Assembly (NCBI GenBank): GCA_001275005.1
Contig: JWZX01002586.1
Location: 1 to 37,610 of the forward strand
Direction: 5' to 3'
DNA from: Chrysochromulina tobinii
Lineage: Eukaryota
Length of the DNA: 37,610 nucleotides
The notes under the pieces were generated by a model that saw nothing but the letters and a program-made list of their open reading frames with translations, was not told the DNA's origin and searched no databases. The translations under genes and the position numbers were made by a program. Numbering within the stretch: position 1 is the first letter of the stretch; every line of letters begins with the position of its first letter. Of the stretch, positions 1 to 26,416 are shown one piece after another.

Positions 1-519
1 GGGGGGGAGCCCGCCACGTGTGTGCGCACGGCGCGGTACGTTCCGTTCCCGTCCCGTTGGAGCGAGGCCCGAGGCGTCAGGCGTCGTTCGAGACCACGGG
101 AAGCGAGATACATCGCATGACCCGTTGTACGCGCTTACAGGATCAGCCTGCGAACGCGGGGACCGGGGTCAGCCTGCCACGTGGGTCGTGGCTGCGAGGA
201 CCCCGCGCGCAATGCATCCCGTCCCTTACCCCCGTCCCGATTCGGTCGTCGGGGTATGGTGTAACACTTGTGATGGGTAAACATGCTCTCGACGCGTTAC
301 CGTTTCGTAGAAAAAACATGGCCGTTGCGGCGCGCGTTGCATCGCGCGGCACGCGCGACAAGGGTGGCAGACTCCGCGTCGCGGTTTACGCTTACCCGCT
401 TACGGCTCGTTTCACGGTAGCCGTGCCGCGCACAATCTGCCTACGCGTAATCGTAGGAGGCCAACGGGCGTTTTCGACGACGACTGTTCAATTGCGGTCG
501 TCGGCGGGTGGACTGGCGG

Positions 520-1314: not shown

Positions 1315-1401
1315 GTTTAACGGTCCGGCGGGCTGCAGAATTCGCCACCAAGATGTACATGTACATGTATACTCATCGGCTACACTTCAGAAGTGATGGC
1401 G

Positions 1402-1426
1402 GACTTGACTTGACTTGACTTGACTT
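1402..1426 (+). repeat. (GACTT)5 microsatellite in the divergent intergenic region
   Basis: Five perfect GACTT copies; an (ATGTAC)~3 repeat also lies at about 1353-1369. Confidence 0.9.
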
Positions 1427-1736
1427 ATCAATTGAAACCAATTTTTTCGAAACTAAAATCGCGCCGCAACGGGCCCCAAAAAACAACTCCGAAACGAACA
1501 TACGAAAGCCCAAAGAGCTTGCAGGACTTTGGCGATTTCGCCCAGCGGTGGGTCCTTCTTCCTCGCCGCTGCGCCTGCGGTGGCTGCGGGACGCGGGCGA
1601 CCTCCTGCGCGCTCCCTGCCATGCGGATAGAGGCCAGGCTTCATATGCTGCTGGGTGCCGCCGCCGCTCGTTGCACCGAATATCGCTCTCACACTCTGCG
1701 CGCTGTTCGCTTCCTCGCTCTGCGCAGGCAGTCGCC

Positions 1737-3558: not shown

Positions 3559-4522
3559 GCACGCCCCCTCAGCCATCTGCTGCGCAGATGCGCGCAGTGG
3601 AGTCGCTGGCGGCCTGCTGCGAGGCAGTGGATCCAAGGGCACTCGGCCCTCTCCGTACTTTCCTTTCTGCCGTTGGCACCGCGTGGTGCCGACCGCGATA
3701 CTCTCTTTGTTTGCTGCAGCGCTGCGCGTGATCGCAGTGCGGTGGATCTTTTGACCTGATGTCCTGTGCCTGTGTCAACTTGTGTGGGTGGCGTGAGGGC
3801 GCGCGCCTGGGCGTGTGCGTACCTGGCTCGATGGCTCATGTGGTCGTGCTGCTTTTCACAGCGTCAGTGAGTTGATCGGCTGGGTCAACAATGACACGGC
3901 GTCTGGCATAGTGTGTGATATGGGCGCATGTTGGGGATCTCTCGAGTGTCCTAGCGATGGGTGTGTTTAGCCCCTGTGTCAAAGGGCGTGGGCAGATGAA
4001 GAACGTTGGCGATGAACAGAACCAGTGAACAAGGCCACAAGTGGGGCGGCGTCGCGCGCGCGGCGGTCGCGGCCCGCCGCCGCGGCGCGCCGCGCGCCGG
4101 GTACCGTCTCGAGGCCGGAGGCTCTAGCTACTAGCAAGGGGCGCCGCGGCGGCGCGGGGACCCTGCGACGTCGCTTGGACGGGGAGTCCTGGCGCGCGGG
4201 AGGCGACACCGGGGAGCCGGAGGTAACTTTAACTACAGGTCGCTAAGCAAAAACTATATCTACAGGTCAATCTACAGGCCACGCCGTCCTCGCCGTGGGC
4301 GTGGTACCCGGCCCCCGGCGCTGCCGCCGCGCGCGTACGGCATTCGGCACATCTCACCGATGCGCATGTGAGATACGGCGTACATATCACCTACGAACTA
4401 CGCCTCCCGATTCCTCCCGAGACCGTCGTGCGTAGCGCTTGCGATCAGTAGTGGTTCGTGCCTCGAGCGACGCTCCGAAATTTCTCGCTTTGTGCAGTGG
4501 CCGCGTGTGTGGCGCGCGGCAT

Positions 4523-6838: not shown

Positions 6839-7539
6839 TTGGCGCTCTCGTCGCCGTCACTCCCGCTGACACCGCTGGATATGCAGCCCATCAATTGGCC
6901 TCTACGGCCCAGCCTGTCGACCTACAGCTTCTGCACCTCGAACTCCTTCGCTGGGCTTGGTGTGTGATTCATTATGAATACACACAACACGTAAGCAGCA
7001 TGTGTGATTCACGCTCGAGAGATGTTTGTAATTCCGCACGAAAAACACGAAAGTACCGCCGTCTCATCACCCCCAGGAGAGGTACGATGCCGGGGTTTTC
7101 ATCGTACATTGTCGACTGATACACACCCGATGCTATCGTCGTCGCGCGATATGTAAAATGGAAGAACTCGAGTAGAGAACCGGCGGTGAACGGTCGTGTT
7201 TGTATGTGTTCTCGCGCGCGCGCGCCGTGCCGGACCAGCACCTGCCGCGCCCGGTAGGGTATCGTGCGCACGGCCGGAGGGCACGATGCAGGCCGCCAGG
7301 CCCACCCTCCACCTCACGCTGCGGAACTATGCCTATGGCTCTTGTGAGCGCCGCTGCGCAGGTCCAGGCTCTCGAGACTGCAGACTCGTGCAAGAGCATG
7401 CACGACCGTACAAGTAGTCCCAGAGCGGGAACCCTCATTCGTCCTGCCAACGGACAGTTTCGACTGCCAACGGAAAATTCGCTCCGCTCCGAGCGTCGTT
7501 TCCACACGAGCGCCGGCTCTTCGAGAACCGCTTGCCGTC

Positions 7540-9805
7540 TCAGAAGCCGCCCAGGCCGTACTCGTCAAAGCCATCGCCCCCCCACTGGTCGGCTTCGGTC
7601 ATTGCCTTCTGCTGACCCATCATGTCAATGCCCGCGCCCTGTCGCTGGCGCTCTCGCTCCTCACGCTCACGCAGGCGCTGCTCGTCGCGCTGGCGCTGGG
7701 CCTGCTGGCGCTGATCCTGAGCCGCACGGCGCGCACGCTCGGTTTCGGCCGCGGCCGCTTCCTGCTGCCGCGCCTGCTGCTGCTGCGCCTGCTGCTGCTG
7801 CCGCAGGTGGGATTCCTTCGTCTGCTGGAAGGACTGCCACATGCCGCCGCCTGCTCCGCCTCCGCCGCCTCCGGTCGGCGCTTTGCCACCGTCCGAGTCG
7901 CCGTCACTCATCCAGCCGTCGTCGGCGCCGTCGTCAGCGCCCGAGAAGCCGCCGCCGCCGCTCGCGCCGCCGTCGGCGGCACTCGCGAGCGAGGAGCGAG
8001 CGTTGCGCACCTGCTGCAGCTGGTGCGGGTTGCGCATGGACGCGGCATCTATGTTGCTCAGGAGCGAGTTGGCGGCACTGCCGCGCTTGCCGCCGCCGCC
8101 GCTCTTCTTGGGCTTTGGGCCGTTGCACTTCTCGAGGTAGTCCCACAGGCGCCACAGGGTCGGGTTGTCGAGTGCGTTGATGTCGACCTCGATGTGGCCG
8201 TCCCCGGACGCGAGCGAAGGGTTGTTGTCCTGAATGATCTTGACTGCCTTCGAGAGGTCATTGGCTCCGAGCCTTGCGATCCCCGCAGAGATCTGCGCGC
8301 GCTGGTCGAAGCTCATGTCGCCGCGATCCATGGGTGGCGCCGGTACCATCGCGCCACCAAAGGCATCCATGCCGCCGCCTCCATAAGGTACCATGCCGCC
8401 GCCGAGCGTATTGCCGCCGCGGGAGCCGCCGCCGCCTCCGCGCCCGCCTCCGCCTCCGCTCTTGCGCCCACCGCGGCCGCCGCCGCGCGGTGCCGCCTGC
8501 TGCATCATGCCGCCCATCATCATGGCGGGCATCATGGCGGGCATCATGCCCGGCATCATGGACGGCGCCATGCCCCCCATCATCATTTGCTGCTGCATCT
8601 GCTGCATCTGCTTCATCATCAACTCCTGCTGCAATAATTGCGCCTTCTGCATTTCGCGCAGCTGCTTCTTGAGGTCCTTAGCCGCATCCGTCTCCTTGTC
8701 CAACTTTTCCGCGCGCTCTCGCTCGAGGACTTGCGGGATCTGCTTCAGCAACTCCTCCGAGCGATGCTCAAGCTCGCGCGCCATGCTGGTCACGCTATTC
8801 GGGTCGTTGGGCTGGTCGTCGCGGTTGAACGTGTAGCAGTTGTGCCACACGAGCCGCAGGTCCGAGGTGAACGCATCGAGGTCCTCGTACTCACCGCCTT
8901 CGAGCTTCTTGCGGATGGTGCCCAGGTCCATCGGGTGCGAAATGACCTCATAGTACTGCGGATACTTGGTCACATCTACTGGCTTGTTGAACAGCCAGGC
9001 AACCTGGCGGCCCATCAGGTCCTTGAGTACCTTTTTGGCCTCCTTGAGCTCTGCCTTCACGGTGCCGTCGCCGCCGGCACTCAGCCGCGCAGGCGCGACC
9101 GTCGCGCGTTTGCGGTGCGTTTGACCGCCAGCATTTGGCAAGCCCATGCTCGCGCGGCCTCCGCCGTCAGGGCGCGCGCGCTTCTGGCCAGCCACTTGCG
9201 CCCCGGGCGCGCCGGGCGCGCCGCCTGGCACGCTGCCGGGCACGGGCATGGTAAACCCGCGTGGTTTGTGCGAGCCGCTCGGGCCCGATGAGCGGCGGCC
9301 GGCGTTGGCCGCTCCGGGAGCGTTCATGTGCTTGCCGAGGTAGACACCGCTGCTCTTCTCAAAATGAATCTGTTGCGGTCGAGAGCGGGCGTGAGAACGG
9401 CGACGGCGACAGGCGCGTGCGCGGATCCGCATGGGCGGGCGGGCGCCGTCGGCTGCGGCTCGCGCTCGAGCCGATTGCGAAGCAGGAAAGCAGCGGGAGA
9501 CGCACACGGAGAGAGCGCAGCGCTCATCACCTTGGGCGTGACGGCCTGCTTCTCCGGATGGCCAGCGACCAGGCCGACCGGAATCATCATGAAACCGAGG
9601 CCGGGCAGGCGCGTCTCGACCTCCCTCATTAGCGCCTGTGCAGAGAGCGGCAACGCAGGCTGAGCGACCGGAGAGCCTCTCATGTGCGCACGCGCTGCCG
9701 CGTGCGTGGGTGCAGAGCATCGGCTCCACAGCCGCGAAAGGCGCGGCAGTGAGGCATCTGCCGCCTCACCTCCGCCTCGCGATGCGTCTTCTCCACCCTT
9801 GACAT
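7540..9805 (-). CDS. BET/GTE-type bromodomain + extra-terminal (NET) domain protein; exons 9805-9770, 9635-9531, 9369-7540
   Basis: Bromodomain AWLFNKPVD...YYEVISHPMDLGTIRKKL...VWHNCYTFN and ET domain MSFDQRAQISAGIARL...IEVDINALDNPTLWRL, with a Q-rich coiled C-terminus. Two phase-0 GT-AG introns join MSRVEKTHREAE-ALMREV...VTPK-IHFEK; the 5' exons are less certain. Confidence 0.88.
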
Positions 9806-10114
9806 CTCGATCAGGCGGTGCAGTCGCGCAGCAGCAAGCAGCTCTCGCGCTGCGCTTGCGATGAGAAAAGCGTTCGCGATGTCGCCGCGTTTCACAAGCG
9901 AGCGTCCCTACGCACGAGGGGCCAAGGGGCTCCCAGCCCCTTAGAGGGGCCTAAACCGAGCCCGTTGTACACGGAATTCCTCTAATCATCGCGGTTCACA
10001 CACGCGGCCGCCGAAGTTTTGAGAGATTTCGCCCATGAAGGCGTTTTTCAACGGCGGCTCTCCCTTCAATCGGCTCTCTCGTATCGAGCCAACGCGAGCG
10101 TAAGGGGGTAGGTC
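9806..10114. promoter_or_regulatory. Probable bidirectional promoter between the BET and tubby genes
   Basis: About 310 bp between divergent start codons; inferred from geometry only. Confidence 0.4.
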
Positions 10115-11089
10115 ATGGCGGTGCCGAGCATGGCGAATCCCAACCCCGCAGCTACGTACATGCCGCAGCCAGCGCAAACAATCACGCAGCGACAGCTCGC
10201 CACCTTTGGCCGCGTCGCCAGCCCATCCTCGCAGCACTACCCGCCTGCCGCCACGGCCGCAGCAACATCGCCCTTCACGCCGAAGCCGATCGGGATGCGC
10301 TCCAGCCCGCCGTTGGTCTCGAGCCCGTCGACCTCCTTCTCATCAGATTCGCCCACCGTGTGCCCGGAGGTGTCCATCGACCTCTCGCGTGCAGCCGACC
10401 TCGATGTTGACAGGCTGCTCGAGCCGCGACCTCGCGATCAGGGCACGATGCGCTGCACCGTGAAGCGACTGCGCGAGAAGCACACGCTCGAGCTCTACCT
10501 CGAGGAGGGCAACGTCTTCGTCCTCTCCGCCACACGCAAGGGCAAGGAGTGGATCATCTCCGAGCAGCAGCAGGGCTGCGAGCCGCGCAAGCACCTTGCG
10601 CGGGTGCGTCAGGGCAAGGAGCGCACGTTCAGCATCGTGCGCGCGCGGCACGACGGGCACGAGAGCGCACCCGAGCTGTGCTACGTGGCGCACAGCACCC
10701 ATCAGCTCGGCAACGGCCTGCCCGATCTCAACGTGATGCGCGTCGCGATGCCGCGGCCGCCTATTGGCGCGCTCGACGCACAGCACGGCGAGCTCGGGAG
10801 AGTGTTGGGTGAGCTCGGCGCCAAGCGCTCGCCCGAGCACGTCTCGATCCTCGAATCGCGCCGCCCCAAGTGGAACGCGCGCACCGAGACGTACGAGCTC
10901 CCCTTCGGCGGGCGCGCCAACTGGGCCTCCGCGCGCAATTTCCAGCTCGTCGAGCGCGGTGCGTCTGAAGGGTCTGCGGTGGCCCTGCTCTACGGCAAGA
11001 TGGAGGAGGACGAGTTTGCGCTCGACTTTGCGTTCCCGCTTTCGCTGCTCAACGCCTTCGCCATCGTTCTCACCACGTGGGGCTGGTAG
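10115..11089 (+). CDS. Tubby-like protein (tubby C-terminal domain)
   Basis: Motifs MRCTVKR, LELYLE, PKWNARTETYELPFGGRANWASARNFQLV, LLYGKMEEDEFALDFAFPLSLLNAFAIVL. Confidence 0.92.
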   Translation: MAVPSMANPNPAATYMPQPAQTITQRQLATFGRVASPSSQHYPPAATAAATSPFTPKPIGMRSSPPLVSSPSTSFSSDSPTVCPEVSIDLSRAADLDVDRLLEPRPRDQGTMRCTVKRLREKHTLELYLEEGNVFVLSATRKGKEWIISEQQQGCEPRKHLARVRQGKERTFSIVRARHDGHESAPELCYVAHSTHQLGNGLPDLNVMRVAMPRPPIGALDAQHGELGRVLGELGAKRSPEHVSILESRRPKWNARTETYELPFGGRANWASARNFQLVERGASEGSAVALLYGKMEEDEFALDFAFPLSLLNAFAIVLTTWGW

Positions 11090-11797
11090 CACCTTCCGTG
11101 ATTCGCCCCTCTCTCTTCTAATGTATTGCGCTTCCACAGGCACAGCCGCGCGGGCGATCATCAGACTCAGCTCAGAGCACCGCACGGTTATCGCAAGTTA
11201 CGGTGCACGGCCACGATGGGATGCGGCCCGCGAGACGTTGACGCTTGCGCGGGTGTCACAGTGTTGCTCTTGCGCTGTGTGTAGTAGGTGAAACCGCTCT
11301 TGTCGTGTACTTCAAAGTTAGTACGGAAGGTTTCGATAGAATTTCGATACGATATCGATCGATAGAATTTCGAATAATTCGCGCCGGGACGGGGAACGGC
11401 CCCGCCAAGAACGTTCTTGGGAGTGGGACTTCCGGAAGTCCTAAGAGTAAGACCCGCGGCCCGCCCGCGGCGCACGACGGTCTCGACGGCTCAGCGCACG
11501 GGTCGACGCGCGGGACGGGCGACACGGAACGGTCCGACGCGCCGGACGGAGACGGAGATAGTCGATTAGGACGATTACTGTCAACGGATATCGCTCATCG
11601 GGCTGGACGGTAGTCGGTACTGGGACCGGACGCGAAGCCGAGAACGCGAGACACGTGCGCGAAGTGAGGAGGAGACGCCGCGGTCCCGTTGGTGCGGGCT
11701 GCCTGCGTGGCACGCAACAGGGCTGCGCGCCGCGAACACCCTCAGGTCTGTGACAGTGGACTTGCGATCTCTGAGCATAGGCTGTAGTGGGTTGCAG

Positions 11798-14197
11798 TCA
11801 GTCCACAGAAACCCATCCCGGTGAGAGGATGGTGTTGGGAGTACCGGTGGGCAACCCATCTGCCTGTGCCCTGCCATGCCCCCCATAGCGCTCTGGGCTC
11901 GTCAACGGATTCACATAAAGTGCCTCCGCTGCCGCGCCTAGGCCACTTCTGGGCGCCATGTCGGGCTCTTGCATGCTCGCATCCGGTGAACGCGATGGCA
12001 AGAGCTCTTCCTGAAGCCCGCCGGCCCTCGGCGGCGCGCCGGCGGTGAGCCGTCCGGTAGGCGCGGTTGCGCCTTCGTCCGGCAGCCCCGCCAGCACACC
12101 CAACGGCAAACGGCCGGAGACACTCGCTCGCACGAGGGCTGCATTGTTCTCACGGAGCAGGCGGAGCTGTGCAAGCACCTGCCTCTCGAAGACCATCGGG
12201 AGGAGGCCGCGCCCAATCCCATGCAGTAGCACATAGGCGGTGAGGCATGAGAGCAGCACACACGAGCTCTGCTCGCCGTCAAGCCCGAAAATCAGGATTA
12301 CGCACAAAGGGAGGGACAGGAAGAGCGCCCCGAGGCTCGTGACGCTGTTCGCCATGAGGCACGTGAGCGGGAAGACGAGCGGCATGCTGCACCGGTGGAT
12401 GATGAGCGTTGAGTCCTCGTTGCACCAGAGGAAGATGGCACACCCGACGCAGCCACCAAGGAACATGGTTGGGAAGAACTTGCCACCCACGAAGCCGAAA
12501 CTGAGCGCCGTGCGAGTCGCGAGCAGCTTGACTACACCGATGCCGATCAGCGTGCTGGGTGCGAGCGTGCGGTTGTTGGTGCCAGCGAGGAGGTAGCGCA
12601 GAAAGTCTGTACCCTCGCCCAAGCAAAACGGCTGCAAAACGGCCCACAGCCCAATGAGGAGGCCCCCGAGAATGGGTTGGAGCAGCGCACCGAGCGAGGC
12701 GACCTCGTCACAGATCGGGCGGGCGGTGCACAGGCTGAGCAGCCGATACCTCAACAGGCTCGTCTTGGACGTCCACCAAAAGTTGAGGCGCGTGTGATCG
12801 AGCCAGCAGAGAAGGCGCAGCCCGAGCGTCTGCAGCACCGCACCCACGATCTCCCCGAGCAGTGCGAGCCCGCAGCCAAGCACTCCGAAAAGCATGGCCA
12901 CGGGGTAGTGCCAGAGCTCGACGACCCACGCTTTCTGCAAGAGGAAGAGGAACACGTCGGCGGACGACGCGCCAGTCGAGGCGACGAGGTCGTCGGAGGT
13001 CAAGTCGTCCGCCGAGAGAAAGGTGTTAGACGCACCGAGCGAGTAGACAACTGCGCCAACGCTCCCGCCAAACGTGACAAAGATGACGAACTGGGCAAAG
13101 TCAAAGCGGAACTTGGAGTGCGGTAGCTCGCCCGGTGCGGCGGCCGACCGCTTCGCATCGACGGCAACGTCCTTGGCGCACCCGAGGCAGCTTAGTGCTC
13201 CGGCGGCTCGTCGGCCCACACCCGTCAGCCTCGCCTCCGCTGTACCGGAAGGCTCCGCCGCTGCCGTGGCCGTGGCCTCTGCCGTTGCCGTTGCATCTGC
13301 CCTTGCCGTTGCATCTGCCCTTGCCTGCTTTCGGAGCGCATGGGCCTCATCCCGCTCCGCGAGTGCAGCGACAGACGCCTTTACAGCGGCCACGGAGATG
13401 ATGGTCGTCGTGATGTTCAGCTCGAGCATGAGGGCAATCGCACAGATGAGTCCCGGGAAGATGTTGACGAAGGCCGTCGCCATCCCGATCAGCACATACT
13501 CCTCGCTAAAGCCACGCTGCACCTCTCGCTCAGATCCTGCCCCTGCGCCGCCTGCCCCTCGTGGGCCCACCTTCAGTAGCCGATGCAGACCCGCGCCGAC
13601 GCCTGCGCCGAAGGAGCCGTTGGGAGCCTCCGGGCCTACGCTCGCGCCGCATCCAATCGCCACGGCCCCGCAGAGCAGGATAAAATAGCCGTGCACCATG
13701 TGGCCCTCGAGGGATCCGACCTCGACCACGAGGTTAGGGGTGAGTCGCGGAAAGACACGAGAGGAGGTGCGGTGCGTAGCATCCCTGTCAAAGATGCCGA
13801 AGAAGACGCTGAAGAAGGTGCCCAGCAGCTTCAGACCGGCGATCACGGCACCGCCACACGTGGTGTACACGATCCATCGCCACTCTCCGCTTCCCCAAGC
13901 AGCATATGCAGTCACGTTGTGAGGCACGACGCTCGTACCATCGTATGCCAGGCCGTGGTCCAATTCGTCGGTGTGCCACGTGGCCTGCGCAATAGAGGTC
14001 GCAATCAGTTGAAAGAGGAGTGCACCACACGCAGTCAAAGCGCCCGCCGCGCAGCTGGCGAGCAACGTCCACCAAAATTTGTGCTCCAGTCCGAATGAAG
14101 AGCCGGCGAAGCGCCACATGTATAGCGTGGAGGCTGCGTCCTCGCCATAGTGGTGTGACAACGTCTGAAATGGCCTCGAGCGGGGTGGAAGTGTCAT
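11798..14197 (-). CDS. CLC-family chloride channel / Cl-/H+ antiporter-like membrane protein
   Basis: Many hydrophobic helices, GASVGPEAP (GxEGP-like gating-glutamate motif) and GFVGGKFFPTMFLG (GxFxP motif). No CBS domains are evident. Confidence 0.82.
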   Translation of the reverse strand: MTLPPRSRPFQTLSHHYGEDAASTLYMWRFAGSSFGLEHKFWWTLLASCAAGALTACGALLFQLIATSIAQATWHTDELDHGLAYDGTSVVPHNVTAYAAWGSGEWRWIVYTTCGGAVIAGLKLLGTFFSVFFGIFDRDATHRTSSRVFPRLTPNLVVEVGSLEGHMVHGYFILLCGAVAIGCGASVGPEAPNGSFGAGVGAGLHRLLKVGPRGAGGAGAGSEREVQRGFSEEYVLIGMATAFVNIFPGLICAIALMLELNITTTIISVAAVKASVAALAERDEAHALRKQARADATARADATATAEATATAAAEPSGTAEARLTGVGRRAAGALSCLGCAKDVAVDAKRSAAAPGELPHSKFRFDFAQFVIFVTFGGSVGAVVYSLGASNTFLSADDLTSDDLVASTGASSADVFLFLLQKAWVVELWHYPVAMLFGVLGCGLALLGEIVGAVLQTLGLRLLCWLDHTRLNFWWTSKTSLLRYRLLSLCTARPICDEVASLGALLQPILGGLLIGLWAVLQPFCLGEGTDFLRYLLAGTNNRTLAPSTLIGIGVVKLLATRTALSFGFVGGKFFPTMFLGGCVGCAIFLWCNEDSTLIIHRCSMPLVFPLTCLMANSVTSLGALFLSLPLCVILIFGLDGEQSSCVLLSCLTAYVLLHGIGRGLLPMVFERQVLAQLRLLRENNAALVRASVSGRLPLGVLAGLPDEGATAPTGRLTAGAPPRAGGLQEELLPSRSPDASMQEPDMAPRSGLGAAAEALYVNPLTSPERYGGHGRAQADGLPTGTPNTILSPGWVSVD

Positions 14198-14293: not shown

Positions 14294-17200
14294 TCAACTT
14301 TGGAGCCTACCACGGCGCTTCTCGCCCATCTCGGCGCTCTGAAAAAGCGCCTCGAGTAGTTCATCCGAGAGGACACAGCCCACGTGTCGCGTAGCACCGT
14401 CGGCGAGCGGCGAGCGGCCTCGCTGAAACTCAACTACGATCTTCCGGCACGTGCCGGCACAGCCGCAACGTGGTCCAAGGGAGACTTGGTGCACAAATGG
14501 TGGGAAGGAACGCACGAGTGCACTGCGCGACGAGACGAGGCGCCAGTGCGGCCCGCCGGTGGGGTCCAGGAGCAGCTGGCCACCCAGGTCGGCTGTTTCC
14601 GGGCAGGCGCACACGCCGAGCTCCGCGACGATCGGATGAGCCTCTGGGTGCGGGCAGCGCGAGCAGCGGCCTTCGTCGTCGGGATCCATGCCGCCTGGCA
14701 GCGGCGGCTGGCAGAAGCATCCGGGGCAGAGGGGGTACGCGCGCTGCCCGGCGGCGCCGCGCGTATTCGGTGCGAAGAGGAGCAGCTCATATGCGCACAG
14801 TGGGCAGCGGCGCTCATTGTAGAGCCGGAAGCTCCCTCCCACTGGTAAAGGGATGGTCCGAGATGGGATCTCCGCGGTCCGAGATGGGATCTCCGTGAGC
14901 TCCGCGGTCTGCGCGTTGTATAGATGCGGGCGCGGGTGTAGCCTCAGCCGTAGGTAGTGGCCTGAATGCGGCGCGCGGCAAAACGGCTTCGAGTCCCGTC
15001 CGAGGACGCCGTCGGCACCATCGACGGCACCATCGATGCGGGCGCTTCCATCGTCCGCAACCGGCGTCGGCTTGGCGATGTCCCACTGCAATGTGCCGCC
15101 ATACTGCTCGATGAACTGAGCGAGGGTGTACGCGTTGCCGTCGGTGATGTCGATGCGACGCTCCTCACCACCGCCTCCACGTGTGTCACCGCCACCCTCG
15201 CCAACCCCCACACCGTCACCTCCGCCTCCATCACCGCCAGCTCCACCTCCGCCAGCTCCACCGCTGCCTCCACCGCCGCCTCCACTGCCGCCTCCGCCGC
15301 CGCCTCCGCCGCCGCCTCCGCCTCCACCACCAAAGGATGCCTCCAAGAGCTCATGCAGGAGGCCGATGTTGCGCGTCAGGTGCTCAAACTTGGCGCGGAA
15401 CTCTTGCAGGCAGTGCGCGACCACAACGGCGCGTTTCGTCTCGCCTCGAGCGATGCGATCGAGCTGTGCCTCGACGTGCGAGCGGACCGTCGGCAGCACC
15501 AGCTCCGGGTCAATGCGCCGAATCGCCTGGGCGAGTGCGAGTCCGACGGACGTAGGCAATCAGCATGCAATTAGATAGGCCATCAGAGGCCATCAGCGGC
15601 ACCTGGGCGAGTGCCAGCCCGACGGACGTAGGCAATCAGCATGCAATTAGATAGGCCATCAGAGGCCATCAGCGGCACCTGGGTGAGTGCCAGCCCGACG
15701 AACGTAGGCAATCAGCATGCAATTAGATAGGCCATCAGAGGCCATCAGCGGCACCTGGGTGAGTGCCAGCCCGAGGGAGGTAGGCAATCAGCATGCAATT
15801 GGATAGGCCATCAGAGGCCATCAGCGGCACCTGGGTGAGTGCCAGCCCGAGGGAGGTAGGCAATCAGCATGCAATTAGATAGGCCATCAGAGGCCATCAG
15901 CGGCACCTGGGTGAGTGCCAGCCCGAGAGGGGTAGGCTCGAAGCGCCGCCCGCCCGTGCCGCCGAGCAGACGAACGTACTTGCGCTGCTCGATCGTGTGG
16001 ATATGAGTGGCAATCGAGGCATCGGTGCCGATCCCATTCATCTCCATGAGCCCAATCAGCTCACTCTCACTCAGGGCGGACGGCTCGGTGGTCGCGTGCT
16101 CCTCGAGCGTCACCGGACCGAAGGCGTATCGACTCGCGACACAGACCCAATCCGGCAGAGGCTCGCATGGCGGCGCAAGGCGCGGCAGCACACGGTACCT
16201 GATGACGGAGGCCATCAGTGGCAGTCAGTGTCCCTCTTCAAAGCCTCTCGATGTCACTCAGCGCCCATCAGCCGTCATCCACGGCAATCAGCATACCGGC
16301 CACGCTCAATCAGCACGGCAATCAGCATACCAGCCACTCTCAATCATCTCACGCCCTCGCGCCTCGAAGACCTCGCCGCCCACGTCGACGGTCGCGAGCA
16401 CGACACGAAGCCGCGCATCCGGCGAGACCGAAGCCAGGAAGGTGCGTGCGACGAGCTCGTACAGACGCCACGCGTCGAAGCCTCCGCAGGCACACGCCTG
16501 CTCACGCGTCGCGGCGGCTACCGGCGTGATCGGCGGGTGATCGCCCGCGTCCACAGCGCCCGGCCGCTTGCGCAACTGTGGGGATGCGGGCGCCGTAGTG
16601 AGCACTTGCATGCAGGGCGGGCGCCCTGCCACTTGCGCGCCTGCCGCCGCTTAGTCTTTTCGAGTCTCAGTGGCAAGCAGTGGCAAGCAGTGGCAAGCAG
16701 TGGCAAGCAGTGGCAAGCAGTGGCAAGCAGTGGCAAGCAGTGGCAAGCAGTGGCAAGCAGTGGCAAGCAGTGGCAAGCAGTGGCAAGCAGTGGCAAGCAG
16801 TGGCAAGCAGTGGCAAGCAGCGTCCATCAGCGCACCTGCAGACGCCCAGGCTCTTCGAGGAGCCACGCCGCATGCTCGCCCCACTCGGGGTGCCCCTGCT
16901 GGGCGCGCACCTGTGGGGAGCAGGGCGCCGTGGTGAGCACTTGCATGCAGGGCGTGCTCGCCCCACTCGGGGTGCCCCCGCAGCGCGCGCACTGTCGTTA
17001 CGAAATCGAACCCCTCGGGGTAAGCTGTGGACTCGGTGCGTGGGTAAGAGAGTAGCCCGCCCATGTACCTGATCAGGGAGTCCATTGCGTCGCACTCAGT
17101 CGCACTCAGTCGCACTCAGTCGCAATCGTGGGTGCGAGAGCCGCTCGCCAAGGTACAATCCCTCTGCGATTTCGTCAAGGTACAATCCCTCTGCGATTTC

Positions 17201-18707
17201 GTCAAGGTACAATCCCTCTGCGATTTCGTCAAGGTACAATCCCGAAGGGTTCGATTTCGTCCATCAAGGTACAATCCCTCTGCGATGCGCATCGCCGAAT
17301 GGGCACCGAGCCCGAGCGCCGCCGAGCATGTCTTGAGCAGCTGCACAGTATTGAGGCCGAGCGGCCGTGCTCGGGTCTCTTCTGTTTCGTCAAGCTGCGA
17401 GAGCGCCGCGGCGGGCGCTTCTCGCACGAGCTGGCAGCACACTGCAGCGACGCCGCGGTCGAAGACGCGAGAGCGACGCCAGTGCACCTGTGGGGAGGAG
17501 GGCGCCGTGCTGAGCACGTGCATGCGCGAAGACGCGAGAGCGACGCCAGTGCACCTGTGGGGAGGAGGGCGCCATGGTGAGCACTTGCATGCGCGAAGAC
17601 GCGTGAGCGACGCCAGTGCACCTCCAGCGACGGAGTCGTGGGCGCTCCCGGTGCCGCCGCCGCCGCCGCCACCTCCTCCATAGCCGATTTGGCGATGTCC
17701 CACTGCAAGGTGCCGCCGTACTCGGCGATGAATTCGGCCTTCGTGTACGCATTGCCGTCGGTGATGTCGATGCGCCGCTCTTCGCCCGCCTTCAACGGTG
17801 CTCCGCCGTGAGCGCCGCCGAGAGGGCCCTGCAACCAGCGCGGAGCGCCCGAGCCCCTGGGTCAGTTTCTGTAATCCGGGCTCATCAGCGCTCATCAGCG
17901 CTCATCAGCGCTCATCAGCGCTCATCAGCGCTCATCAGCGCTCATCAGCGCTCATCAGCGCTCATCAGCGCTCAACACCTGCAAGCGGGCCGCCAGCGTC
18001 CAGTACGGCTCGGGCACGAAGGCGGCGATCTCGAGGTGGCGCTGCACGACGAAGCCGAGGGCGGGCGTCTGGCATGGGCCGAAGCTGATCGTCGTGTTTG
18101 CCAGCCGCTTGATCCGGTCGCTCACTGACTGCGTCAAGTAGCGCGTGAATGCGACGCCTACCTTGAGATCCAGCTCCTGGCGCGCGTCCACCGCCGACGC
18201 CTCCGCCTCATTCGGCTGTGTGAGTGTCTCCATCGCGCGGCTGACGGACGCTGCCGAGACGGCGGAGAAGCGTGCGCGCCACACACGCCGCGCGTCGCCC
18301 GCTGCCGGACGCAGCGCTGGCAGCACGATGTGCATCACCTCGAAGCAGATGTTCTCGCCCTCACGGTCGCAATCAAGCCACAGGACGAGATGGGAGCAGC
18401 CCTTGGCCGCCTCGCGCAAGTGATTGCACACGGCACCGCTCGTAGGCGTCTTCACAGTGCCACACGAGAAGAGCTCGATCGGCGGACGATCCCACGAAGA
18501 GGCGTAAGGCTCTGTAAAGTCCAAGTTGAACACGTGGCCCTTGACCGACGTGACCCTAAACCTCGCGGGCTTGCCGAGAAAGGATCCGTCGAGCTCGTGC
18601 ACGTCTGTCTCCCCGTGCCGCACGCTCACAGCTCGCTCGTGTGCAAGAAATGTCGCAATCGCTGCGGCGAGCGAGGGCTTCTCGGCCACATGCAGGATGT
18701 GTTCCAT
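14294..18707 (-). CDS. TOP3B: DNA topoisomerase III beta; 8 exons: 18707-17979, 17828-17622, 17487-17273, 17068-16993, 16910-16836, 16575-16331, 16198-15907, 15526-14294
   Basis: TOPRIM motifs VAEKPSLA, TSVKGHV, LWLDCDREGENICFEV; then RQELDLKVG, SFGPCQTPALG, catalytic SYPRTEST, DAGDHPPITP, GIGTDASIATHI, IDPELVLPTVR and C-terminal Cys-rich zinc-ribbon motifs (CPLCAYELL, CPGCF). Seven GT-AG introns restore one open frame. Confidence 0.93.
15527..15906 (-). repeat. TOP3B intron 7: five tandem 76-bp units, each starting with GT and ending with AG
   Basis: Units 15906-15831, 15830-15755, 15754-15679, 15678-15603, 15602-15527. Each is a 46-nt cassette GTGCCGCTGATGGCCTCTGATGG...GCATGCTGATTG plus a 30-nt copy of the upstream exon end (...GGCACTCACCCAG). 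Confidence 0.9.
16199..16330 (-). other. TOP3B intron 6 (132 nt) with an internal duplicate of its exon/donor junction
   Basis: TG|GTATGC...CATCAG|GTAC restores ESGWYRVLP. The junction TGATTGAGAGTGGCTGGTATGCTGATTGCCGTG is repeated immediately as TGATTGAGCGTGGCCGGTATGCTGATTGCCGTG. Confidence 0.75.
16671..16820 (+). repeat. (TGGCAAGCAG)15 10-bp satellite inside TOP3B intron 5 (16835-16576)
   Basis: 15 perfect copies. Confidence 0.95.
17069..17272 (-). other. TOP3B intron 3 (204 nt): 27-bp tandem repeats of the donor junction, an inverted exon fragment and a 10-bp repeat
   Basis: TT|GTACCTTG...GATCAG|GTAC restores AEGLYMGGLLSYPRTEST. On the + strand, CAAGGTACAATCCCTCTGCGATTTCGT repeats at 17149/17176/17203 and (CGCACTCAGT)3 lies at 17091-17120. 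Confidence 0.8.
17488..17621 (-). repeat. TOP3B intron 2: two tandem 67-bp GT...AG units
   Basis: Units 17621-17555 and 17554-17488; each is a 29-nt copy of the exon 3 start (GTGCACTGGCGTCGCTC...) plus the 38-nt acceptor cassette. Confidence 0.88.
17881..17970 (+). repeat. (CTCATCAGCG)9 10-bp satellite inside TOP3B intron 1 (17978-17829)
   Basis: Nine perfect copies. Both intron junctions read TTGCAG|G. Confidence 0.95.
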
Positions 18708-18888: not shown

Positions 18889-19085
18889 TCATCGCATTTG
18901 ACCGTACAGATTCTCTTCGGCGTATGAATTCATACACATTTGACCGACACATCAACATTTTGTCCTCTAGTCACCAATTGCTAGCGCACTAGCTACTGTT
19001 CCCACTGTGACGGTACACTCCGCTCGCTCAGATTCGAATAACAGCCACAGCCGCCAAAGCTCGCCGTGTGCCGCGCAGTGTGACG

Positions 19086-22000
19086 TCACAGGGCCCCCAG
19101 CAAGTCACAGACCACTGTGTGGCCACTATCACGAGCGAGCGAAAGCGCGGTCTTGCCTGCAGCAGTCTGCACTTCCTTGCGCGCGCCAGCGCTGAGCAAC
19201 ATGTGGACGCAGTGCTGCTGGCCCGCCATCGCCGCATACATGAGCGCAGTATAGCCTGCCTCTGTTGCATGCGAGGGGACGACAGCAGCGTCGATGTCCG
19301 ATTGCGGGAGCACGCGCTTGAGCACCGTTGTCAGGCCGCCGAGGCTCGCCGCCATGAGCATTGTAAAGTTGTCGATGCTCACTACCTTGAGCGAGGCGCC
19401 TGCCTCAAGCAGGACGAGAGCAACCTGCTCGTGGCCATTTTGGGCAGTGAGCATCAAGGCGGTCCAGCCATCAGGCTGTGCCTGATTTGGGTCCGCCTTC
19501 GCCTCGAGCAGGACGAGAGCAACCTGCTCGTGGCCATTTTGGGCAGCGGACATCAAGGCGGTCGTGCCGTTGGACTCTGCCTTATTTGGGTCCGCCTTCG
19601 CCTCGAGCAGGACGAGAGCAACCTGCTTGTGGCCTTTTCCGGCAGCGAGCATCAAGGCGGTCACGCCATTGGGCTGTGCCTGCTGATTTGGGTCCGCCTT
19701 TGCCTGGAGCAGGACGAGAGCAACCTGCTTGTGGCCTTTTCCGGCAGCGAGCATCAAGGCGGTCACGCCGTTGGACCTTGCCTGCTGATTTGGGTCCGCC
19801 TCTTTGCCTCGAGCAGGACGAGAGCAACCTGCTCGTGGCCACTTAGGGCAGCGAACATCAAGGCGGTCATGCCGTCGGACCTTGCCTGATTTGGGTCCAC
19901 CTTTGCCTCGAGCAGGACAAGAGCAACCTGTTCGTGGCCATTTTGGGCAGCGAGCATCAAGGCGGTCACGCCGTCGGACGTTGCCATATTTGGGTCCGCC
20001 TTTGCCTCGAGCAGGACGAGAGCGACCTGTTCGTGGCCATTTTGGGCAGCGCACATCAAGGCGGTCCAGCCGTTGGACATTGCCATATTTTGGTCCGCCT
20101 TCGCCTCGAGCAGGGCGAGAGCGACCTGTACGTGGCCATTTCGGGCAGCGCACATCAAGGCGGTCAGGCCGTTGGACTCTGCCTTATTTGGGTCCGCCTT
20201 CGCCTCGAGGAGGACGAGAGCAACCTGCTCGTGGCCATTTTGGGCAGCGCACATCAAGGCGGTCCAGCCGTTGGACATTGCCATATTTGGGTCCGCCTTC
20301 GCCTCGAGCAGGGCGAGAGCGACCTGTTCGTGGCCATTTTGGGCAGCGAGCATCAAGGCGGTCCAGCCGTTGGACTCTGCCTGATTTGGGTCCGCCTTTG
20401 CCTCGAGCAGGACGAGAGCAACCTGCTCGTGGCCATTTTTGGCAGCGCTCATCAAGGCGGTCCGGCCGTCGGACTCTGCCTGATTTGGGTCCGCCTTTGC
20501 CTCGAGCAGGACGAGAGCAACCTGCTCGTGGCCATTTTGGGCAGCGCTCATCAAGGCGGTCCAGCCGTCGGACTCTGCCTGATTTGGGTCCGCCTTTGCC
20601 TCCAGCAGGACGAGAGCAACCTGCTCGTGGCCATTTTTGGCAGCGCTCATCAAAGCGGTCCGGCCGTCGGACTCTGCCTGATTTGGGTCGGCCTTTGCCT
20701 CGAGCAGGACGAGAGCAACCTGCTCGTGGCCATTTTTGGCAGCGCTCATCAAGGCGGTCCAGCCGTCAGACTCTGCCTGATTTGGGTCCGCCTTCGCCTC
20801 GAGCAGGACGAGAGCAACCTGCTCGTGGCCATTTTGGGCAGCGTACATCAAGGTGGTCCGGCTGTTGGACTTTGCCATATTTGGGTCCGCCTTCGCCTCG
20901 AGCAGGACGAGAGCAACCTGCTCGTGGCCATTTTGGGCAGCGCTCATCAAGGCGGTCCGGCCGTCGGACTGTGCCTGATTTGGGTCCGCCTTTGCCTCGA
21001 GCAGGACGAGAGCAACCTGCTCGTGGCCACTTCGGGCAGCGTACATCAAGGCGGTCACGCTGTCGGACTTTGCCATATTTGGGTCCGCCTTTGCCTCGAG
21101 CAGGACGAGAGCAACCTGCTCGTGGCCATTTTTGGCAGCGCTCATCAAAGCGGTCACGCCGTTGGACGCTGCCTGATTTGGGTCTGCCTTTGCCTCGAGC
21201 AGGACGAGAGCAACCTGCTCGTGGCCACTTCGGGCAGCACTCATCAAGGCGGTCACGCCGTCGGACTCTGTCTGATTTGGATCCGCCTTCGCCTCGAGCA
21301 GGACGAGGGCGACCTGCTCGTGGCCATCTTGGGCAGCGAGCATCAAGGCGGTCACACCGTCGGACCTTGCCTGATTTGGGTCCGCCTTTGCCTCGAGCAG
21401 GACAAGAGCAACCTGCTCGTGGCCAGCACTTTGGGCAGCGAGCATCAAGGCAGTCCAGCCGTCGGACTCTGCCTGATTTGGGTCCGCCTTTGCCTCGAGC
21501 AGGACGAGAGCAACCTGCTCATGGTCATTTTGGGCAGCGAGCATCAAGGCGGTCACACCGTCGGCCGCTGCCTGATTTGGGTCCGCCTTCGCCTCGAGCA
21601 GGACGAGAGCAACCTGCTCGTGGCCATTTTGGGCAGCGAACATCAAGGCGGTCATGCCGTCGGACTCTGCCTGATTTGGGTCCGCCTTTGCCTCGAGCAG
21701 GACGAGAGCAACCTGCTCGTGGCCATTTTGGGCAGCGAACATCAAGGCGGTCCTGCCGTCGGACTCTGCCTTATTTGGGTCCGCGTTTGCCTCGAGCAGG
21801 ACGTGAAGGCAGCGCTCGTGTCCAAAACTGCTCGCCCGCATGAGCGGAGTGCCACCGTCGGAATCGGCGAGCGCCGCATCCGCCCCTTGAGTGAGGAGCT
21901 GCTGCACGATCGGCTCGGCGCCCTCCTCCGCGGCGAGGTAGAGCGCGGTGCAGCCCTCGGCGCTCTGCGCATTGAGCGTGGAGGCGTTTGACGATTCCAG

Positions 22001-25000
22001 TAGCTTGACGATGGCCGCGAGTTGCTTGCGGCGGGACGCGACCATGAGCGCCGTCATCCTCCCCGCGTCCTGCGTGCGTGCGAGGGTCGCCAGGTCCCCC
22101 GTCGCGGCGGCGCGCAGCCGCTCCGTGCGCATGCACGCCTCGTCGGTGAACTCGCGGTCCGAGAGCGTCGGCTCAAAGAGGCGAACGACGGCGTGCTGCT
22201 TGGCGTTCCGTGCTACGTTGGCTGCGGACTGGTTCTGCATGTTCCTCTCCTCCTTGTCGGCGCCCTTTGCGACGAGCGCACGGCAGATGGCCACGTGCCC
22301 GCCGGCGGCGGCGCGGTGCAGCGGCGTGTTGACGCGCTCGTCGGCGACGAGCGGGTTGACGCCCGCGTCGAGCAGCGCCTCGACGAGCGCCGCGTCGCCC
22401 GCCCCCGCGGCGAGACGGAGGAGCGCGCCCGCGCGGTTGGACGCAACGACGAGCGCCTTGGTGCGCGGCAGGCCCTTCTTCTCCTCCCACCCCTGGATCT
22501 TGACGTCCACCTCGTCGCCCTCCACGCGTGCGACGACGGCCGGCAGCCAAGTCACGTCGCTGGCGAGCACGCGCTTGCCCACGACGAGCGCGTCCGCAGC
22601 AGCCAGCTTCCCCGCCTCGCGCGCCGCCTCGCGCGCCACGCCCTTGGCTGCCTCGAGCGCCGTGGGCAGCCACGCGGCAGGCAGCCCCTTGCGCACGAGC
22701 GTGGCAAGCACGCACAGCCGCCACGCCTCCTTGTCTGGCACGGCCGCCCCCTCGGCTACCGGCAGCTGCGCCGCCTTGACGAACGCGTCGCCAAACACCG
22801 CGCCACCCGCCTGCACGCCCATGAGAACGGCGTTCGTCCACCACACGCCCCACGCAAACGACGGCAGCGGCACGCCGCCATCGCCGATGGCGAGCATCGC
22901 ATAGTATTCCTGGAAGGAGAGGTGGAAGGCCTGCATCTGCAGCGGCTTCGCCTCGAGCAGGCGCACGAGCGGCAGCCCGTCTCGCGCCACCAGGGCGCGC
23001 AGCTCGTCGGCCGCACCCTGGGCGGCGGCCATGCCGATGCGCGCGCCGATGCGCGCGGCGGCGGCGCCGAGGTGTGCCTCGGTGATGATGCGCTGCTCGG
23101 CGGCGTGCGCCTCGAAGAAGGTGGCTTGCAGCAGCGCGCGCGCGTCGTCCGACACGGCGGCGCCCGACCGTTTTTGCATCGCGCCGGCCGCCACCTCGTA
23201 CAGCTCGGCGGTGGTAGTCGGCATGTCGATGCCGACACGCAGCTGCGCAATGGAGCACACCATCGAGAGCATGAGGGGGTTGGCGGTGACGCGGCGCTTC
23301 GTGCCGGCCTCGCCGCCGGCGTCGAGCGGCACCTTGTCGCGCAGGTAGGACTTGAGCGCGGACGCGCGCTTGTCGCCGAGCCGCGTGGTGAGGAAGGCCT
23401 CCTGCTGCTCGTCGCTCAGCGGAGCGAGGGTCAGCCTGTGGAACCCGGCGAAGCCCGCCTCGTCCAGGCCAGCCGGGCGTGAGGTGCACAGGATCACAAA
23501 TCCCTTGGGCGCGAGCACCTCGGCGACGTGCTTCTCGATGCGCGCCCGTTCGGCGCCCGCCTCGTCGAGCCCGTCGAGCAGCAGCAGCACGCGCCGCTCG
23601 TGCATCGCCGCGCGCAGCATCGCATAGTGCGGCGGCGCGCACGTGAGCTTGAGGCCGGCGTCGACCCAATCGTTCGCCGCGTCGAAGGCTGCCCCTTGCT
23701 CGGCGAGCCGCTTCTGGAGCTGCTCGGCGCGCACGAGCACGGGCACGAGCGGCTCGCGCCCGTCGTCCTCGGCGAGCCTGTCGACTTGCCCCAGCGCGTG
23801 CATGATGAGCTGCGACATGAGCCACGTCTTGCCCGCTGCCGGGCCGGCGGTCAACAGCGCGCACGTGCGTGCGCTGGAGCGCAGGTCGTGCAGCCACGCA
23901 CACAGCGAGCGTGCGTCGCGCACGGCGAGCGGCTTGCCGTTGGCATCGTGCCCCTCCACGCCGATGGGCACGCACTCCGTGAGCGTGCTGAGCTGCTTGC
24001 CGGAGAGGGCGTCGGGGATGTACGCGTGCTGCGCGCGCAGACAGTCGAGGTGCCACGCGCGCATCGACGCGAATCCGTCGTCGGCGGGCATCGGCGGCAA
24101 CGCCACCACCTGCGAGCCGGCGGCCGCCTCGGCGGCGAGCGCGAGCACCGGCTGCACCGCACCGACGATGCGCGTGACGTACTCACGGTAAAGGGCGGGC
24201 ACCGTGTCCATGTCGCCTTTGCCGGTGAAGGTGGCGCCGGCAATGCGGGTGAGGACCCGCTCGACGCGCTCGGCCAGCTCGCCGGTCGGCGCGACGCACG
24301 GCTCCGTGGGGCGGCCGCTGCGCAGCACGAGCACCTTGGACGGAAGCGCGTCGAGCGCCTCCCGCACGCGCGGCACCGCGCCCAGCCGTGCGAGCAGCTC
24401 GTGGCTCACGGCATCCTCAAAGACGCACCAGCCGCGCTCGTCGTACGGGCGCTCATTGTACAGCGTGTCGACGCCGTCGCACAGCTCAGGCCACGGCCCT
24501 GCGCGCTTGGCGGCGAGCGCCGCCTCGTGCGACGCGAAGCGCACGACGGGCGGGTTGCGCGTATGCTCGAACGCGACGATGGCACCGAAGCAGCCGAGTG
24601 TCTCGCGGACGGCGCCCTCCCCCTTCGTGGCTTTCAGCCCGAAGAGGCACAACGCACCGTCGAACGCCTCCGGCCGGGGCGGGATCTCGCGCGACTGCAG
24701 CACGGTGGTGCCGACGGCGGAGGCGTACACGTCGGCCATGACCATGATCGCGCGCTCGAAGGCGGCGCTCTCGACGGGCGTGCGCGTGCGGTTGGGCAGG
24801 TTCTGGAAGAGCGAGGCATAGTCCCAGAAGACGCCCTCGATGTGCGGGTGCTCCTCGAGGGCGGCGAGCACCATTTCCAGGCGCACGCCGTCCGGGTCGC
24901 ACTCGCCGGGCGACAGCCAGCTGTGGCTGAGCGCGCCCACGCCGCGGCTGCCGCGCCGGAGCAGCACGACGGCCTCCTCAGCCGAGAGGAAGGGCGATGA

Positions 25001-25894
25001 GAGGAACGGCGACTTTTCCCCCGATGCGAGGGACAGCGCCTCGAGCTCCTGTCGCCGCTTCAGCCGCCTCCCGTTTGGCTGCCGCCGCAGCCGCCGCAGC
25101 CGCCGCAGCCACGAGACACGCAGAAGCTTGATGTCGCCGGCGTGGAGCGCGTCGGCGAGCCGGTCGTCGAGTCTTGAGAGGACGCGAATGATCTCGGACG
25201 GTGCGCCCATGGCCACGGTGGGCCGCACAGCGTCGTCGTCGTCGATGTCGTCGAGGTTGATGTCGTCCCCGTTGTACAAGGCATTGGACCGCGTGGGGCC
25301 ATTGGACGGTCCCGATGAAAACAGCCCACGCGGCGTGAAGGCCAGCATGATCGCGTTTATCACGGAGGTGCCAATCTCTAAGATCGGGTTCTTCGTCTCG
25401 GCCGCCGTCTCCGTCGCCGCTCCGGCCACCGGCTTACAACTTCCGTCGTCTACAGACGTCTCGGGCACTGATTCGGCGCTGTCGGTCGTCTCGGGCACTG
25501 GTTCGGCAACCTTCATGTCTTCGGGTGCTGCCCGAGGGCCTGGCTCGACAGCGACAGGTGGCGATTCCGAAGGGCCATCCAGAACCTGCACGAAGAGCTC
25601 GGCTTGTGCGCCAGGCTTGCTTGCGGCGCAGCCGCCCCCTCGGACGCGCACCATCTCCGTCCAACAAGTCCTGAGGCTCACTGGCCGACCCGGCAGGGCG
25701 ACCGCAGAGCGGGCGCACTCTCGCGTCCGAAAACGCGGACGTCCAAGCAAAACTTCCCAGGAACGGCGTGAATGTGAATGCGAGTGACCACCGACCCGCC
25801 TACCGGTCGCGGCATCGACGGAGGTGGCGGCGGAAGAACTTGTCGCCGACGCGAAAACGGCGAAAATAAAGATCGGCCCGCGGATGATCGACAT
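19086..25894 (-). CDS. NLR-like STAND protein: HET-like domain (with RRM-like insert), NACHT NTPase, SH3/Tudor-like segment, long ankyrin array; 2-nt frameshift at about 19801
   Basis: HET-like SHSW...FWDYASLFQ...MADVYA...RGWCVFE. NACHT Walker A AGPAAGKT, Walker B LLLLDGLDE, CTSRP, NPLML, FHLSFQEY. Ankyrin consensus GxTALMxAAxNGHEQVALVLLEAKADPN. The start is uncertain: the ORF is open to 26404, with candidate Mets at 25894 and 25654. Confidence 0.85.
19400..21790 (-). repeat. About 24 near-identical 99-bp (33-aa) ankyrin repeat units
   Basis: Counted 20 units in the 2213-aa ORF and 4 after the frameshift. The scaffold is almost invariant; three units carry a one-codon insertion. Confidence 0.92.
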
Positions 25895-26416
25895 GATTGA
25901 CAGAACCCGTGACAGAAGCGCTCCGCCGCACCTACATCCGCTACATCTGCTTCGTACCCCGACGCCCGGTGGCACGGACCGTTGAGGCGGCGGCCCCAAA
26001 ACAAAGACGGCAGAGTTATGATGACGGTCGACAATGCCATAAAGGCATAAACCCCAAGATAAACCCATCCCCCCCCAACCCCCCACCTGATTGCCTATCA
26101 CAGTCCCGCCCGGTAGTATATGGCAGCGAGCACCAGGGAACACCGCTGTGTGCTCAGACTCTCCGAGAGACATTGCCGAGAGATCATGAGAGATCGACCT
26201 CACTACATGTAGCGAAACCTGTAGCGAAATTGAAGAGCGCTCTGGCTCAGTACTTGTGTTGACCGAGGGGTGCGGAGCCATCCTTACACAGATACACTGT
26301 GATGAGCTCGACCAGCGACGAAACTGTCGGACCAGAAGTTTTTTGGACCGCCATGAGTTGCCAAATCTGTCCACGCACGCTCTGAAAACATTTCTGGCCG
26401 CCACGATCGAGAAGGG

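Follow-up and report, generated by a model that had tools for sequence, protein, structure and literature searches.

In a 37,610-nucleotide (nt) stretch of the Chrysochromulina tobinii genome (contig JWZX01002586.1, here called the window), the TOP3B gene carries introns assembled from two unlike halves: a copy of the head of the next exon, which supplies a GT or GC donor, and a shared acceptor cassette consisting of a core, a pyrimidine tract and CAG. The phenomenon is real, genome-wide and polymorphic between strains, and it lies outside the definition used in the 2022 Introner survey. What is copied appears to be an existing intron, in part or in full. We tentatively propose, with slightly less than even confidence, that staggered breaks in transcribed genes are repaired with existing introns as templates, probably via intron RNA.

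Anatomy of the introns in TOP3B and across the genome

With its introns removed, the eight-exon TOP3B model yielded a 1023-amino-acid (aa) open reading frame (ORF) with one stop, at its end, and the alignment with homologs was unbroken at all seven junctions. This bears out the claim of an earlier reading of the sequence alone (the initial annotation) that splicing restores the coding sequence. The model protein contains Toprim and Topoisom_bac domains, and a quick tree placed it in a 10-row clade with Prymnesium parvum (support 100); the gene is a haptophyte TOP3B.

The initial annotation had counted three cassette copies. The window holds four cores, on the minus strand (starts 17592, 17525, 16948 and 16613), all in TOP3B introns and in sense orientation, and core plus tail measures 38 nt in each, the length first proposed. 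Intron 2 (17621-17488) consists of two tandem 67-nt units, each with a 29-nt head, and intron 4 (16992-16911) is a single 82-nt unit. The last 65 nt of intron 5 (16640-16576) form a degenerate unit, the weakest of the window cases; the CAG directly before it may be an older acceptor, and the acceptor of this intron was provisionally placed by reading frame and homology. Matches to the start of the downstream exon amounted to 27/29 and 28/29 for intron 2, 37/44 for intron 4 and 16/27 for the intron 5 unit, which starts with GC, in agreement with the exon-head copies described initially. No terminal inverted repeats (TIRs) of at least 14 nt were found in the four window units, in keeping with the initial impression. 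An Rfam scan of 15400-18000 gave no match over the cassettes, only sub-threshold matches on the intron 1 tandem array, and the four units did not fold more than shuffles (z-scores 0.18 to −1.02).

RNA contigs joined intron 4 in one of three RNA runs, intron 1 in two and intron 3 in all three (the runs containing the window are labelled mixed culture and freshwater). Intron 2 was not among the listed RNA joints; one RNA contig departs from the genomic sequence at 17489, as an exon 2 splice would. Of the junctions predicted earlier, that of intron 4 was thus seen in RNA, and splicing of intron 2 is indirectly supported.

Family counts were made in a sample of metagenome loci and the window, with 5 of 64 parts of the collection scanned. 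An exact 25-letter pattern occurred in 133 stretches of these parts, or ~1800 in total, a number that includes several assemblies of one organism. About 23 of 301 cassette matches were dropped for too little flank, leaving 278 cores, and removal of 32 redundant ones left 246. A pyrimidine tract and YAG followed 180 cores (acceptor-type), 117 of which end in CCCCACAG. Upstream of 135 of the 180 acceptor-type cores we found a copy of the next exon, anchored at its first base, compared with 67 of 5323 shuffled pairs (1.3%). The expectation that the cassette would recur elsewhere in sense, at intron 3' ends and behind a copy of the next exon therefore largely held.

A stricter score with a linker of at most 40 nt retained 115 units (6 of 121 exceeded that linker length). 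Their duplications are 13-54 nt long, confirming the long and variable exon duplication proposed at the outset, and the units measure 45-123 nt (median 77). Duplications were perfect in 40/115 and junction copies tandem in 17/115; 88 of 98 first units start with GT or GC, and the duplication is preceded by G in 73/98 and by AG in 38/98. Across the family, only ~24 nt of the proposed 38-nt cassette are constant: the 24-nt core hardly varies and is interrupted in few copies, whereas the length and sequence of the tract and the 5' edge vary. Duplication divergence did not correlate with core mismatches (rho −0.04, n=115), which fits variants inherited from parents and leaves co-ageing of the two parts unsupported. 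In DNA run X1, depth summed across the core reached ~79,000, compared with 60-70 in single-copy flanks. This suggests that copies number in the order of a thousand, although depth gives no true copy number. No terminal direct repeat was seen on the cassette, and viral contigs contained no match to the cassette pattern. The core starts with the palindromic hexamer GCATGC, which a preceding CTT makes part of a 12-nt palindrome, and ends with GGCGCC; TGCATG is also the RBFOX motif.

Orientation was scored with a codon model trained on window ORFs, which was right in 125 of 143 held-out pieces; acceptors with another core within 150 nt downstream were set aside. The downstream flank scored as sense in 122/150, and frames agreed after in-silico splicing in 38 of 46 units whose length is not a multiple of three. 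Neighbouring cores were co-oriented in 161/168 pairs (overlapping loci counted twice). Of 26 cores without acceptor, 19 scored sense. Some of the acceptor-less cores lie in frame in long ORFs (cassette-strand positions: L008 2500, L015 2500, L021 2500, L033 1199), where they would add peptides such as HASAHHGA or MQVLTTAP.

The cassette (A) is not the only module that behaves in this way. A second acceptor family, B, consists of CTGA repeats ending in CCTCCCTCATCAG and follows an exon-head copy in 38/94 cases compared with 3/1806 controls; A and B modules were co-oriented in 99/104. Mirror copies also exist, in which a donor module stands before a duplicate of the tail of the upstream exon, and this duplicate supplies the AG; TOP3B intron 7 reads as one of them. 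The 35 mirror-type rows include reverse-strand views, tandem units and chance rows, and we relied only on the clear cases (L021, L051, L058, L061, L062, L098 and intron 7). Full-length introns with donor, core and acceptor also exist (L008, L097, L120). The single non-autonomous 38-nt element of the initial annotation is thus not what is seen: A, B and donor modules behave alike, a whole intron has been copied, and the tract and 5' edge of A vary in ways inherited from parents.

Kinship of the copies and filled and empty sites

Individual parent introns could be identified. The head of TOP3B intron 4, an exon copy encoding a TOP3B-native stretch, recurs in introns of two other genes, at loci L062 and L058. 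At L062, in a gene for an EttA-like ABC-F protein, the intron 4 head from its GT, the linker and the cassette form a 178-nt intron with internal tandem units, inserted without duplication. Since the copied head encodes a TOP3B-native stretch, the direction is fixed as TOP3B to ABC-F. The L062 intron has three intron-specific states in common with window intron 4 and keeps the exon state at two sites, so this copy branched off before those two changes. An intronless 566-aa protein matching L062, which probably comes from a transcript, joins across both the TOP3B-derived intron and another duplication-type cassette intron. The third gene, at L058, carries the 3' part of TOP3B intron 4 with the same tandem junction. 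The L062 protein is 98% identical to a Chrysochromulina parva gene model, and with the intron sequence that L062 has in common with the window this makes an origin of the window in the C. parva/tobinii group most likely; the C. parva ABC-F model P0134 contains the translated sequence of the TOP3B-derived intron, showing that gene models of this group contain translated cassette.

Kinship is also local. Among 149 sites, core variants were shared by 28 of 152 same-locus pairs and by 325 of 10874 other pairs, and at least 6 nt of upstream sequence by 12/152 and 51/10874, respectively; copies at the same locus are related to one another. The end of the L041 duplication, from the preceding gene 2.5 kb away, is found again in L042, with a 5-nt overlap at the join. 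Exon-head similarity between kin pairs, examined for templates that include the parent exon, was weak and inflated by tandem pairs. The filler between the duplicates is copied from other introns and is exact at one end, at a splice site, and fuzzy at the other. In 13 of the 16 units whose duplication abuts the core, the next exon letters are GC, with which the core also begins, against a background of 14% (p=3.5×10−9); the 5' junctions thus show microhomology.

Of nine locus pairs compared between assemblies, two differed cleanly between strains by presence or absence. L009 has no intron where L070 has an 81-nt unit with a 33/33 duplication (26 mismatches in 1520 aligned bases), and L064 has none where L044 has three 86-nt units. 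The number of units differs at L050 and L100. A DNA contig of run X1 has the empty form of the L070 site; run X19 contained almost nothing of L070, and coverage in X21 was thin. Another cassette of this gene, 524 nt from the L070 copy, has the same tract and the same 8 nt of linker upstream, a kinship that favours gain over loss, although loss is equally compatible in form.

Within the window, all modules fall in TOP3B, which has seven introns, and the other long ORFs are free of them; modules cluster by gene. The coordinates are given in Table 1. The units of intron 7 can each be read as a donor module with a duplicate of the exon 7 tail behind it, and this duplicate would supply the AG. The inverted exon 4 copy in intron 3 spans 20 nt at 95% identity (17241-17260 versus 17000-17019) and, together with the tandem exon 3 tail copies, resembles a template-switch-like scar.

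Table 1. Coordinates of the TOP3B gene and its intron modules in the window
Feature	Position	Strand	Basis or remark
TOP3B gene, 8 exons, 1023 aa	14294..18707	-	gene model, domains, homolog alignment, tree
TOP3B exons 1-4	18707-17979, 17828-17622, 17487-17273, 17068-16993	-	
TOP3B exons 5-8	16910-16836, 16575-16331, 16198-15907, 15526-14294	-	
Intron 1: 10-nt CTGATGA tandem array	17829..17978	-	
Intron 2 unit a: 29-nt copy of exon 3 head, source of GT donor	17593..17621	-	27/29 match
Acceptor cassette A copy 1 (core, tract, CAG)	17555..17592	-	
Intron 2 unit b: second exon 3 head copy	17526..17554	-	28/29 match
Acceptor cassette A copy 2, AG precedes exon 3	17488..17525	-	RNA contig departs at 17489
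Intron 3: B-like acceptor, tandem exon 3 tail copies, inverted exon 4 copy	17069..17272	-	
Intron 4 head: 41-nt exon 5 head copy and 3-nt linker	16949..16992	-	
Acceptor cassette A copy 3	16911..16948	-	82-nt GT-AG joint in RNA run X16
Intron 5 tail: degenerate exon 6 head copy, starts GC	16614..16640	-	16/27
Acceptor cassette A copy 4	16576..16613	-	
Intron 6: CTGA-rich, acceptor family B at end; exon 6 tail copy and donor inside	16199..16330	-	
Intron 7, mirror type: five 76-nt units	15527..15906	-	sequence reading

Four related TOP3B ORFs read through to model residues 384, 447, 507 and 533, past the position of intron 2 in all four and past those of introns 4 and 5 in three, and end in unrelated tails. 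Given these tails the ORFs may be genomic; as their DNA status is inferred, they set only a loose bound on how old the TOP3B introns are. P0002, a TOP3B ORF of a relative, breaks at model residue 384, where intron 3 lies, and intron 3 may thus predate introns 2 and 4. No TOP3B relatives were found among viral contigs. A 98-nt coding repeat (~33 aa, RRIDITDG...) occurs twice in TOP3B (17689-17786 and 15072-15169); one copy is inserted in the topoisomerase domain, and the first copy is present in P0002, P0003 and P0008.

The cassette-free ORFs of the window (1-14000 and 19000-37610) include a CLC channel, a bromodomain protein, an exostosin, ankyrin/NACHT, TCAD9 and NACHT/LRR. A 2213-aa NACHT-ankyrin ORF contains 24 tandem 99-nt ankyrin units (19401-21803). 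Five window ORFs had no exact match in the sequence collection, and the search with the NT5C ORF gave no named match.

Possible routes of intron gain

On the proposal made at the outset, a staggered break in a transcribed gene would be repaired with an existing intron, probably as RNA, as template. Copying would begin at the parent's 3' splice site, for example with the intron 3' end joined to the displaced sense strand by partial reverse splicing at an R-loop, and would proceed 5'-ward, mostly halting just past GCATGC, before being joined to the filled-in other end. If the other strand were nicked 13-54 nt downstream, fill-in followed by end joining would leave exon, duplication, cassette and exon in this order. 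Filling in the stagger would create the exon duplication, whose first GT would serve as donor, so that splicing would restore the coding sequence. Complete copying would produce a whole-intron insertion without duplication, as at L062, and copying of the parent's 5' half would produce the mirror type; the flanking direct repeats would then permit tandem expansion or precise loss. Because each new intron could be a template, no dedicated element would be needed. A precise 3' join with a truncated, microhomology-bearing 5' join has been reported for partially reverse-spliced group II intron RNA (PMC3280974), and reverse splicing at R-loops has been proposed for Micromonas introners (PMC4540971). 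We favour a route linked to RNA because neutral antisense and intergenic copies are rare, only one gene of the window carries the modules and the L062 copy runs exactly from donor to acceptor.

Several points weigh against this proposal. The RNA intermediate, the enzyme and a de novo event are all hypothetical here, and we know of no intron-encoded enzyme for these spliceosomal introns. The presumed branch A lies ~14 nt downstream of the stop near GCATGC, which is thus no stall at the branch; the mirror type requires a second route; and L127 and L114 hold in-frame core copies that are probably antisense. The inverted exon copy in intron 3 and the hop from L041 to L042 could be explained equally well by a DNA template. 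In the group II precedent it is deletions of exon sequence that are reported, and 'duplicat' does not appear in the paper (PMC3280974). Only two of the nine locus pairs were clean, and loss by recombination between direct repeats would look alike. Finally, the 81-nt unit of L070 is a multiple of three, open in the likely frame of the gene and without RNA cover, and is thus a putative intron.

A stronger version would be a transposase-free chain reaction coupled to splicing, in which spliced-out intron RNA, joined to the displaced sense DNA strand by partial or complete reverse splicing, is copied, every intron breeds introns, including those that consist half of duplicated exon, and most introns of the alga were built in this way; we consider it unlikely in this full form. 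A rolling copy round a lariat was rejected, as the tandem junctions, judged by eye, fall after GGCGC and not at an A.

The best-surviving alternative, which we rate as somewhat less probable than the RNA-linked proposal, is repair templated by DNA: a broken end would invade an intron-exon junction, close by or far away, by microhomology, copy part of the intron and rejoin out of register, in the manner of polymerase theta or template switching, and selection would retain the spliceable sense copies. The local kinship of copies, the GC microhomology, the local and inverted fragments in linkers and intron 3 and the symmetry of acceptor and donor types all agree with it, as do the G and AG that precede the duplication in 73/98 and 38/98 units; breaks with 3' overhangs do produce tandem duplications of small size (PMC8355091). 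DNA templating also offers a simpler account than RNA of the mirror type, of the small number of antisense copies, of the inverted copy in intron 3 and of the jump from one gene to its neighbour. However, neutral antisense and intergenic copies should then be common, but they are rare, and the L062 copy begins exactly at the parent's 5' splice site, where DNA bears no mark; selection could explain this, at a cost.

A further reading, which we rate as improbable, is that an HUH enzyme of the Replitron or Helitron type, or the reverse transcriptase of a long interspersed nuclear element (LINE), mobilises the cassette as a non-autonomous transposon. Such an origin predicts that one end is precise and the other fuzzy and that the target duplication varies, and in the cassette all three are present, the fuzzy end being derived from the parent as in Replitron-1, which also has orientation-specific insertions and variable duplications (PMC10288648); one Replitron protein has been recovered from C. 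tobinii (PMC10288648). Its core is bounded by palindromic hexamers and seldom cut inside, and the variable duplication with a 5' truncation bearing microhomology is also what short interspersed nuclear elements (SINEs) and LINEs would leave. The sense bias, the CAG end and the lack of an Rfam match over the cassettes do not fit a SINE or LINE, for which insertion in either orientation, a poly(A) or simple-repeat tail and a structured-RNA head would be expected. More generally, a terminal direct repeat was not seen, nor were inverted ones of at least 14 nt in the four window units, at least two unrelated acceptor modules as well as donor modules behave alike, a whole intron with an exon-derived 5' end has moved, and sense and genic bias are strong.

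An older burst of full-length Introners, reduced to half-introns when junctions were duplicated locally, the original intron was lost and conversion between filled and empty alleles broke off, would fit the full-length introns at L008, L097 and L120, the frequent tandem junction copies (17/115) and the GT that also follows 24 of 37 acceptors without duplication, but it cannot bring TOP3B exon sequence into unrelated genes, leaves the within-locus kinship between different sites unexplained and conflicts with empty alleles lacking any intron, and is thus contradicted as sole cause and very improbable overall.

Comparison with known systems of intron gain

The origin of new spliceosomal introns is a long-standing question, and new introns are now mostly credited to transposons. 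Here a culturable alga offers young half-copied introns in the order of a thousand, with empty and filled alleles and a traceable lineage, which leads from a TOP3B exon to TOP3B intron 4 and on to an ABC-F intron and a third gene. The system allows direct tests of RNA versus DNA templating and of reverse splicing.

We compared the cassette introns with published Introner surveys. In the accessible parts of PMC9860276, C. tobinii and C. parva are in the genome list and were not found in the Introner table, nor were cassette words found; PMC12130899 gives zero families for C. tobinii, and neither cassette word occurs in the parts of it that were searched. Marine Chrysochromulina metagenome-assembled genomes do have Introner families (PMC9860276), and the family described for them has a 4-bp target-site duplication (TSD) and carries its donor (PMC9860276, PMC12130899). 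Our literature search, which covered few subscription papers and no Introner consensus files, returned no description of this architecture, the accessible parts of PMC11282704, PMC4580454, PMC12403724 and PMC8469720 included; an earlier description is possible.

Among other routes, tandem genomic duplication of AG|GT also lets a duplicated exon provide a splice site, with splicing restoring the coding sequence (PMC3443670). It differs in that here a foreign insert between the copies gives the branch point, tract and AG, and AG precedes the duplication in 38/98 units. Intron gain by break repair in Daphnia shares the direct repeats from staggered breaks and the population polymorphism, but its repeats measure 4-12 bp, compared with 13-54 nt and filler from other introns here (PMC4202315). 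Replitron-1 of Chlamydomonas resembles the cassette in its one precise end, its one fuzzy end from the parent flank and its variable duplication; Replitrons, however, are 0.9-3.6 kb long, with a Rep enzyme and direct repeats at their termini (PMC10288648), features not seen here. Retrohoming of linear group II introns shares the precise 3' join and the truncated 5' join with microhomology (PMC3280974), and the R-loop model for Micromonas introner elements shares the sense-only genic insertion (PMC4540971); the introns here are spliceosomal and show a long exon duplication instead of exon deletion.

Introners themselves are closest. They too form families of similar introns at new positions in genes, bringing one splice site with them and recruiting the other from a duplication (PMC9860276, PMC12130899). 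Their definition asks for at least four similar introns in unrelated genes, and we found 246 non-redundant cores; the copies are also genic, sense and, by presence/absence, recent. Similarity at both intron boundaries, which the definition requires (PMC9860276), is confined to one end here, as the 5' part is a locus-specific exon copy in 115 of 180 acceptor copies at the stricter cut-off; L062 and TOP3B intron 4 are the exception. Searches that rely on both ends would miss this class, and such gains may therefore be undercounted in other genomes. Introner TSDs are 3-9 bp long, and the short, fixed-length TSDs and TIRs of Introners derived from DDE transposons of the miniature inverted-repeat type contrast with the variable 13-54 nt duplications and with the four window units, which lack TIRs of at least 14 nt. 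Any intron, moreover, seems able to be a parent. Although it thus departs from Introners in its single shared end, its long duplication and its lack of such TIRs, the intron type described here works like an Introner, by combining a shared sequence with a duplication.

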